This document shows positions 5,397-5,462 of a DNA stretch of 5,854 nt, piece after piece. The stretch is from IMG/VR virus record IMGVR_UViG_2703719354_000007; one strand, given 5' to 3'. A program made the position numbers and the translations under genes. Origin of the DNA: a virus. Its lineage: Duplodnaviria > Heunggongvirae > Uroviricota > Caudoviricetes. Numbering within the stretch: position 1 is the first letter of the stretch; each line of letters opens with the position of its first letter. Below the pieces are notes generated by a model, which saw nothing but the letters and a program-made list of their open reading frames with translations, did not search any database and was not told the DNA's origin.

Positions 5397-5412
5397 TCTG
5401 CCTCCTGATAAT

Positions 5413-5433
5413 AAAAAACCCGCACGCGGCGGG
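5413..5433 (-). terminator. Terminator-like GC hairpin plus U6 tract in the intergenic region upstream of the major tail gene
   Basis: Plus 5419..5433 is cccgc-acgcg-gcggg, a 5-bp all-GC stem with a 5-nt loop. On the minus-strand RNA it is followed immediately by UUUUUU (plus-strand A-run 5413..5418), then AUUAUC, then the V Shine-Dalgarno. It lies in the 66-nt gap between the upstream gene stop (5465..5463) and the V start. Confidence 0.35.
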
Positions 5434-5462
5434 GTATGGGTTTTGTAGAAAAAAAGAAAAAG

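Follow-up and report, generated by a model that had tools for sequence, protein, structure and literature searches.

The stretch of DNA analysed here (the window, 5,854 nt at its full length; IMG/VR virus record IMGVR_UViG_2703719354_000007) covers the tail module of an E. coli prophage of the lambdoid, HK97-like kind, and all of its genes are found on the minus strand. The window DNA is 97-99.5% identical to many Stx1- and Stx2-converting phages, and a match to it is present in 2437 of 5426 complete E. coli genomes. Here, we focus on the non-coding gap in front of the major tail gene and on the hairpin that lies within it. Following the coding strand, the genes and features are:

5463..5807, minus strand: tail completion or tail terminator protein (HK97 gp11-like), 114 aa; Pfam PF11367 Tail_completion_gp17, E = 1.1e-7
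5460..5476, minus strand: weak hairpin AGGUCAC-GGU-GUGACUU over the upstream stop codon, then a U/C tract; -6.3 kcal/mol, z = -2.76
5397..5462, minus strand: non-coding gap of 66 nt between the tail-terminator gene and the major tail gene, read from the sequence
5447..5462, minus strand: pyrimidine tract CUUUUUCUUUUUUUCU, lineage-specific and variable
5434..5446, minus strand: gap segment ACAAAACCCAUAC between the pyrimidine tract and the stem
5419..5433, minus strand: terminator-type hairpin CCCGC-CGCGU-GCGGG with five G-C pairs and a 5-nt loop, from the consensus scan and folding
5413..5418, minus strand: U6 tract abutting the stem, read from the sequence
5401..5406, minus strand: Shine-Dalgarno (SD) sequence AGGAGG, 4 nt before the major tail ATG (5396); GGAG or AGGAG at the same place in the alignment
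4680..5396, minus strand: major tail (tube) protein with a C-terminal Ig domain, 238 aa; Pfam Phage_TTP_11 / Phage_tail_2 and Ig
4665..4291, minus strand: tail assembly chaperone G; Pfam Phage_TAC_1, E = 2.7e-61
4267..3986, minus strand: tail assembly chaperone T; Pfam Phage_tail_T, E = 4.8e-19
3957..3977, minus strand: second terminator-type element AACCGC-UGAG-GCGGUU with U5, 18 nt before the tape-measure ATG (3938); folding z = -2.42
3938..696, minus strand: tape measure protein
703..362, minus strand: protein M

The gap begins behind the TGA stop codon (5465..5463) of a gene whose homologues go under the name 'tail terminator' in RefSeq records of phages, and it ends at the ATG of a major tail protein whose tube domain is ~79% identical to that of the HK97 major tail subunit. 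The arms of the stem are CCCGC (5433..5429) and GCGGG (5423..5419), with the loop CGCGU (5428..5424) between them. AUUAUC separates the U6 tract from the SD, and CAGA separates the SD from the AUG. The original prediction had listed a pyrimidine tract, this hairpin, U6, AGGAGG and the ATG as the contents of the gap, and on the minus strand every one of them was found at the coordinates given. Homologous gaps have a median length of 59 nt, and across loci the hairpin starts a median of 18 nt past the upstream stop codon (29 nt in the window), a distance that puts it out of reach of a ribosome terminating at that stop.

An element of the same type precedes the tape-measure gene. The chaperone genes G and T sit between the two hairpins, and the element at 3977..3957, with GGAG between it and the tape-measure ATG, closes the V-G-T block. 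It scores 18.9 bits with a covariance model built from the elements in front of major tail genes. The V-G gap is 14 nt long and holds no hairpin. The V-G-T block had been described as bracketed by terminator-like structures, and the elements at 5433..5413 and 3977..3957 are indeed both real.

What can be said of the hairpin from the window alone is limited. A consensus scan lists 5433..5413 as terminator-like (five pairs, all of them G-C, and a loop of 5 nt), and the window holds 8 terminator-like sites compared to 4.9 +/- 2.5 in shuffles. No T-run adjoins the stem on the opposite strand. Folding of the 25-nt hairpin segment gives -8.5 kcal/mol (z = -1.35), which 19 of 200 shuffles also reach; since this single-sequence energy is not significant, it is set aside as an argument. 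Within its family, the window hairpin is among the weakest (-7.5 to -8.5 kcal/mol, with a family median of -10.8). Its approximate d'Aubenton-Carafa score is +20, with a median of +15 across loci and positive values for most of them. The energy taken by itself would be compatible with a hairpin that arose by chance. The gap could also be coding sequence, namely an N-terminal extension of the major tail protein. Both of these readings can be judged by comparison with relatives.

The close set of relatives consisted of 80 IMG/VR loci with a major tail protein at least 89% identical, and in these the hairpin and its U-tract are near-invariant. The distant set combined nine phage records (HK97, vB_EcoS-569R6, Salmonella FSL SP-016, Klebsiella Kp4884-3, Morganella IME1369_02, HK542, Cronobacter ENT39118, and Burkholderia phi1026b and KS9) with 66 prophage loci, which were collected through a tube-domain profile with one genome per species and whose identity to the window goes down to 36%. 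Of 70 distinct homologous upstream regions, 69 have a G+C-rich hairpin with a T-run directly after it, ending 18-26 nt (median 21) from the major tail ATG; the regions come from Stx phages, HK97, and Klebsiella, Proteus, Yersinia, Pseudomonas and Burkholderia prophages, among others. Greedy stem extension gave 65 of 70, as it swallowed the T-run in four Proteus loci, and a trimmed scan adds these four. The sole exception (L154) is a locus whose start codon is uncertain. Along the rest of the same strand in these loci, the motif has a rate of only 0.048 per 70 nt.

The remainder of the gap is far less constant. The spacer upstream of the hairpin is A/C-rich and variable across loci, and the alignment has no conserved column upstream of the stem. 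The pyrimidine tract carries single-base indels among loci that are at least 89% identical and is absent from HK97 and more distant loci; with its variable length and its absence from more distant relatives, it does not belong to the conserved element. A role for this tract as an anti-SD sequence or an Hfq site was likewise considered and rejected, as it forms only weak, G-U-rich pairing with the SD (z = -0.78) and lacks conservation.

Stems differ by clade while their pairing is kept, with 5' arms such as CCCGC, ACCCGCC, GACCGCC, GCCACC, AAGCUGC, AGACCGC and GGCCCGC. In a plain MAFFT alignment, double changes are found in all six of the six consensus pairs. When the loci are aligned with the covariance model, 91.4% of cells are paired compared to 68.0% in shuffles (0/500), 89 cells are changed on both sides compared to 27 (0/500), and the covariation score is 0.569 compared to 0.171, with all slid controls at or below 0.20. 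An alignment made with a covariance model favours structure by construction; nevertheless, the MAFFT result and the slid controls indicate that the covariation signal is real. The consensus fold of the 69 loci contains the terminator hairpin and nothing else. Taken as a reading of these alignments, the structure of the hairpin appears to have been kept by selection, with compensatory changes in the stem. The original prediction had named the absence of the hairpin from homologous intergenic regions as evidence against it, and the opposite was decisively found.

The retention in 69 of 70 regions set against 0.048 per 70 nt, together with the covariation of the stem, shows that the hairpin is not a product of chance. 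The coding alternative can be traced to the Stx phage YYZ-2008, whose sequence matches the window at 99.1% identity over a 655-nt query. In this phage, the ATG shares its frame with a GTG that overlaps the stop codon upstream, and the RefSeq CDS (gp59) begins at this GTG and runs through the terminator. We rejected this CDS because of frame-shifting T-run indels in close relatives. The same GTG frame is out of phase with the ATG in the window, and the indels result in gaps of 64, 65, 66 and 68 nt among near-identical relatives, so that no frame is kept. Since the differences in T-run length shift the frame, the gap is not translated. Moreover, the strong SD stands right in front of the ATG, and distant homologues start at the aligned Met. 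These comparative data already refute both chance and coding sequence, and we give them next to no credence. For annotation purposes, the element shows where the major tail gene truly begins.

The element is of an already known kind. In HK97 (NC_002167 / AF069529), the space between gene 11 and gene 12 (major tail subunit) carries an annotated 'putative terminator' (6692..6719) at the homologous position, and HK542 has an annotated 'rho-independent terminator' both before (6642..6664) and after the major tail gene. The hairpin in the window is the orthologue of these features. Annotated 'terminator' features are also found under the match in HK75, HK446, HK633 and mEp234. The HK97 element resembles that of the window in its stem core (CCCGCC/GGCGGG compared to CCCGC/GCGGG) and in its T-rich tail, which is then followed by the SD and the ATG, and the two score 38.7 (HK97) and 38.2 bits (window) with the covariance model. 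The homologous gap is 53-59 nt as opposed to 66 nt in the window, and the adjacent coding DNA is 72% identical. The two elements differ in loop sequence and in stem length, with the hairpin of the window being the weaker one, and HK97 has neither the pyrimidine tract nor the stop-codon hairpin found in the window. Further downstream, the major tail gene of HK97 is followed at once by a hairpin lacking a T-run, and a moron precedes the tape-measure gene; the window has its second terminator after T instead. We know of no experimental test of the HK97-type terminator sites before the major tail gene, and a literature search for experimental work on terminators flanking the major tail genes of HK97-like phages found none.

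A G+C-rich stem, a short loop and an adjoining U-tract on the coding strand are, as far as the letters can tell, the canonical anatomy of a Rho-independent terminator. The proposal that the hairpin is terminator-type transcript punctuation on the coding strand was therefore right in kind, and the element that it pointed to is a conserved one. The reading that we favour, and that we hold to be probably correct, is that RNA polymerase is stopped at the element unless modified by Q, in which case it reads through, and that the element thereby keeps the tail genes silent in the lysogen. We infer both termination and Q read-through at 5433..5413, as well as this biological purpose, from the comparisons described here. 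The strongest argument for termination competence as the property under selection is that the T-run adjoins the stem in 69 of 70 loci. Such adjacency speaks against an exonuclease barrier or stability hairpin and against an AU-rich translational enhancer, neither of which would need it.

By this mechanism, RNA polymerase without Q modification would form the GC hairpin in its transcript, stall on the U-tract and release the RNA before the ribosome-binding site of the major tail gene has been made. The tail genes would thus be silent in the lysogen and insulated from stray, moron-driven or read-in transcription. During lytic growth, Q-modified polymerase starting from PR' would pass all terminators of the operon and produce a continuous late mRNA. 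In this read-through mRNA, the hairpin would remain ~20 nt upstream of the start codon, where it might affect the stability or the translation of the major tail cistron.

That Q-modified polymerase is resistant to terminators is well established for phage lambda. The components of the lambda system (PR', qut, tR' and downstream terminators) have their likeness in the close relative of the window, which has a Q-type gene, a tR'-like hairpin and a late region punctuated by terminators. The Q gene would lie outside the 5.9-kb window, and its existence for the window is deduced from close relatives (YYZ-2008 and HK97, which encodes the Q-like antitermination protein gp69). In YYZ-2008, the late region begins with the antitermination (Q) gene and, close behind it, the tR'-like hairpin, and all late genes are co-directional over about 30 kb. 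A scan of its coding strand found 13 terminator motifs over ~32 kb, 12 of them in intergenic gaps. The major capsid fusion gene, the major tail gene (two motifs) and the tape-measure gene are each preceded by such sites, and others lie around the inserted ant gene, around lom and after tfa; the hairpin cassette is also found before K and stf. The cassette before the capsid gene is a full-length match to the covariance model (34.9 bits). With about ten terminators in series, only antiterminated transcription would be expected to reach the tail genes. Q antitermination at tR' has been described for Stx phages, and a Term-seq data set is available for E. coli O157 Sakai (GSE143631; PMC7547250).

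An element of this kind was first considered unusual for a lambda-type late operon, on the view that such operons are continuous read-through units. This view does not hold up against the annotated genomes. In the HK97 record alone, seven putative terminators are annotated within the late operon on its coding strand, namely in front of the protease gene, behind the major head gene, on both sides of gene 12, and ahead of the tape-measure gene, I and J; HK542 and YYZ-2008 are punctuated likewise. Continuity of the late operon is thus owed to antitermination rather than to a lack of terminators, and the gap adds one more case to the rule that lambdoid late operons are continuous for the antiterminated polymerase only. 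Such terminators would keep virion genes silent in lysogens and isolate morons. A regulatory feature is due in the annotation of the very many E. coli prophages that have an HK97-type tail module.

Moron-flanking terminators in lambdoid late operons were reported by Juhala et al. (2000), as cited in PMC4104026. As far as that citation describes them, they lie within the late operon and halt transcription that comes from outside the antiterminated late promoter, and the terminators next to genes inserted in the gap of two loci would do likewise. In HK97, an annotated terminator follows the moron gene 15. One of the two loci (L092) has a 176-aa open reading frame (ORF) in the gap with two copies of the hairpin flanking it, and the other (L125) has a 120-aa ORF. 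In both, a terminator still stands between the moron-like insert and the major tail gene, which fits an insulating role. The window is unlike the moron systems in the form in which they are cited, in that it has no moron and its terminator lies between two essential virion genes.

It is counter-intuitive to find a terminator directly before the gene for the tail protein that is needed in the largest amount. Of 70 loci, 69 have a canonical terminator ahead of the major tail gene, whereas only 16 of 69 have one behind it, all 16 in the HK542-like clade, and insulation alone does not obviously explain this difference. Moreover, the hairpin stays with the major tail gene where the upstream gene has been swapped (L016, L092, L111, L125 and L144). 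This co-movement and the narrow spacing of 18-26 nt could mean instead that the hairpin acts in cis on the cistron that follows.

One such role would be in the stability or processing of the mRNA. Following an endonucleolytic cut in the unstructured upstream spacer, the hairpin would be left at the 5' end, where it would shield the V-G-T segment from 5'-end-dependent RNase E attack, or it would act as a barrier to 3' exonucleases for the upstream segment; either would result in differential stability within a single transcript. Siphovirus tails take far more of the major tail protein than of the joining proteins encoded upstream, which agrees with this arrangement. The hairpin travelling with the major tail gene and its tight distance to the ATG both agree with it, as does the recurrence of the cassette before the major capsid and tape-measure genes of YYZ-2008. 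However, a stabilising hairpin has no use for the U-tract that is retained so strictly, no conserved cleavage motif is seen in the A/C-rich and variable upstream spacer, and the low-copy tape-measure and K genes have the cassette too. We therefore regard stability or processing as the main function with some reserve, as a possible but doubtful reading.

Alternatively, the gap could be a cassette for translation initiation, in which the hairpin insulates the ribosome-binding site, the U/AU-rich stretch serves as an S1-binding or standby site for uncoupled, high-level translation, and the likeness to a terminator is secondary. Across loci, the 3' end of the hairpin falls at -19 to -27, which is the 5' edge of the 30S footprint, and gaps of 52-66 nt uncouple translation from the upstream gene. 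In YYZ-2008, the capsid and tail-tube genes are both preceded by a U/AU-rich spacer and a strong SD (AGGAGG). Despite this, the same cassette precedes low-copy genes (tape measure, K and stf), and an S1 site requires neither a GC hairpin nor U residues that strictly adjoin the stem. Part of the SD of the window is able to pair with codons after the AUG (GGCAGA/UCUGCU), which does not suggest optimised initiation, and genome compaction alone would give a short distance to the next gene. This makes a primarily translational role improbable, and clearly less credible to us than a role in stability.

The preferred reading, a terminator that is read through by Q-modified polymerase, could also be extended to include a second use. 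The element would then be a 'terminator-RBS cassette' that gates unmodified polymerase and that, in the antiterminated mRNA, acts as a 5' structural cap and standby site setting both stability and translation rate for the most abundant tail protein. We put this forward tentatively, as a possibility of rather low probability. If true, it would explain the retention in 69 of 70 regions from Enterobacterales to Burkholderia and the fixed spacing of 18-26 nt, and likewise the co-movement with the major tail gene and the recurrence before capsid and tape-measure genes. On the other side, low-copy genes are also preceded by the cassette, and a compact operon gives short distances by itself.

Another reading places the function in trans. 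The transcript ending at the terminator would be a 3'-UTR-derived, Hfq-binding sRNA, acting like other prophage sRNAs of pathogenic E. coli. EHEC and EPEC prophages encode many Hfq-bound sRNAs (PMC4104026, PMC8550237), and the U-rich stretch, single hairpin and U6 of the window resemble an Hfq-binding module (PMC4104026). AgvB, AsxR, PasA-D and isrK are similar to the element in having a short GC hairpin with poly-U in a lambdoid prophage, and the window also has a U-rich stretch upstream. However, the sRNAs of EHEC and EPEC have promoters of their own or defined processing, and they lie near PR' or lysis genes or, in the case of PasB, on the opposite strand (PMC4104026; PMC8550237, table S6; bioRxiv 10.64898/2026.05.13.724894); the anti-sRNAs of Tree et al. 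(2014) sit near PR'. The window has 0 sigma-70 promoter-like sites against 3.3 expected, its U-rich tract is not kept beyond close relatives, and no conserved single-stranded seed is visible in the alignment. The EHEC Hfq-CRAC list of sRNAs (EcOnc; Tree et al., 2014) excludes sites less than 100 nt from coding regions, and is consequently uninformative on a 66-nt gap.

The same picture emerges from Rfam. A scan of the window and of both gaps found no family at threshold, with isrK reaching 27.1 and 18.2 bits against a gathering score of 50. The sub-threshold matches (isrK, Trp_leader, isrD and RybB) align the terminator stem alone, with isrK, isrD and RybB at 11-18 bits, and the sub-threshold isrK match at the 3957..3977 element is likewise driven by the terminator stem. 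PasB, which is broadly distributed and described as 'embedded in a structural operon', was considered as a candidate and rejected, as neither the window nor YYZ-2008 contains its probe sequence; PasB itself lies in prophage PP6 of E2348/69, on the strand opposite to another structural operon. Taken together, we consider an sRNA reading of the gap unlikely, with only a slight chance of being correct.

The original prediction had also offered an attenuator as one form of the punctuation. In a regulated attenuator, an alternative antiterminator structure, a leader peptide or a ligand would switch termination without the help of Q. The window does have tandem hairpins (5476..5460 and 5433..5419), and Rfam gives a sub-threshold match to Trp_leader (17.6 bits against a gathering score of 41). 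The Trp_leader alignment, however, spans only the terminator, and no upstream complement to either terminator arm was found. The consensus fold of the 69 loci has the terminator helix as its sole structure, and the spacer in which an alternative pairing would have to lie is variable. With no conserved alternative structure found in this consensus fold or by Rfam, this part of the prediction is not upheld, and we judge a regulated attenuator to be highly improbable. The stop-codon hairpin at 5476..5460 was examined separately as one half of an attenuator and was discarded: close relatives have one compensatory, one breaking and two loss variants, and beyond close relatives the hairpin is not conserved, being absent in HK97.

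In phage lambda, U and V are not known to be separated by any appreciable gap, so a terminator in this place characterises the HK97-type tail module rather than lambda. Predicted Rho-independent terminators in the gaps of a structural operon, beside the major capsid and major tail genes, are also found in Bacillus phage SPP1 (PMC6316719), although this phage, its host and its regulatory system are unrelated to those of the window. The SPP1 terminators lie behind the genes for the major capsid protein (8775..8815) and the major tail protein (17.1*; 11255..11304), and not before the tail gene, where the gap is only 13 nt. A general rule that a terminator precedes the major tail gene in siphoviruses was therefore rejected, as it fails for SPP1, and the difference in placement indicates that the upstream position belongs to the HK97-type module and not to siphoviruses generally. 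Within this module, the one point of some value for research is that a canonical terminator stands directly before the gene with the highest need for expression, and that it is kept far more strictly than the one behind it.

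The combination of a hairpin, a U-tract, a Shine-Dalgarno (SD) sequence and a start codon that precedes the major tail gene is not confined to that gene. Further units of this type were located in the window and in YYZ-2008 (NC_011356, locus L156):

Window 3957..4024, minus strand: second cassette, in the gap between gene T (tail assembly chaperone) and the tape-measure gene; AACCGC-UGAG-GCGGUU, U5, GGAG and ATG in order.
L156 12045..12097: hairpin, U-tract, AGGAGG and start codon, in the gap between terL and the major capsid gene of YYZ-2008.

The YYZ-2008 unit reads GAACCGC-UGCG-GCGGUUU UUUUAUUUUC AGGAGG CUGAU GUG, leads into the major capsid fusion gene and has the same layout as the major-tail element. 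It scores 34.9 bits, over its full length, against the covariance model for which the major-tail elements were the training set. The second cassette of the window is matched by the Rfam family isrK at 27.1 bits, below the gathering score of 50, and the alignment consists chiefly of the terminator stem together with two weak helices upstream, within the end of gene T.

In two prophages, the gap between the tail-terminator and major tail genes holds an additional reading frame:

L092 70..900: 176-aa ORF of an Enterobacter prophage, with one copy of the hairpin on each side.
L125 453..900: 120-aa ORF of a Proteus prophage.

The gap seems to be an insertion site for morons, with the terminator at the junctions.

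The annotated start of the major tail gene in YYZ-2008 bears on the same gap:

L156 18294..19079: YYZ_gp59, major tail CDS; the RefSeq start is a GTG that overlaps the upstream stop codon.
Window 5397..5466: counterpart of the N-terminal extension of YYZ_gp59.

With this GTG as start, the "protein" opens with VTFSVFYKTHTPPRAGFLLSGGR and crosses the terminator hairpin. The GTG frame is out of phase in the window, and it is shifted by T-run indels between near-identical prophages. The RefSeq start is almost certainly wrong.

Two other structures flank the terminator, the first of them at the upstream stop codon:

Window 5460..5476, minus strand: 7-pair hairpin AGGUCAC-GGU-GUGACUU, overlapping the upstream gene's stop codon and followed by a U/C tract.

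Its z-score is -2.76. Among close relatives, L033 carries a compensatory change (GAUCAC/GUGAUC), the stem is broken in L043, and the hairpin is lost in L018 and L054; its counterpart is also absent from HK97. On the other side, at 5385..5405 (minus strand), the stretch GGCAGA, made up of the SD's 3' half plus the spacer, is predicted to pair with codons 2-3 (UCUGCU), a fold that would place the major tail AUG in a 3-nt loop. A comparable small helix, AGACA/UGUCU, would form in HK97.

Behind the major tail gene, a hairpin had already been annotated in HK97:

L001 2239..2258 (HK97 7443..7462): "putative terminator" 3' of the major tail gene, GCCGGGUUGUCCCGGC.

No T-run is found at this site. Hairpins of this U-less type follow the gene in several Klebsiella and Serratia loci too (L084, L095, L103-L106 and L111). 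They look like another kind of element than the upstream terminator.

Two loci appear to be decaying prophages in which the terminator is still kept. In an endosymbiont, Candidatus Symbiopectobacterium endolongispinus (L108, 880..903), the SD is mutated from GGAG to GCAG and the hairpin is intact; in Leclercia (L107, 837..990) the major tail ORF is cut to 50 aa.

Terminator-like motifs also occur inside a coding sequence:

Window 482..530, minus strand: two motifs within minor tail gene M, GGCAUGGUGGUUACCGUGCC followed by UUUUUG, and CCGGCGAUGGCUGG.

The first of the two is present in YYZ-2008 as well.
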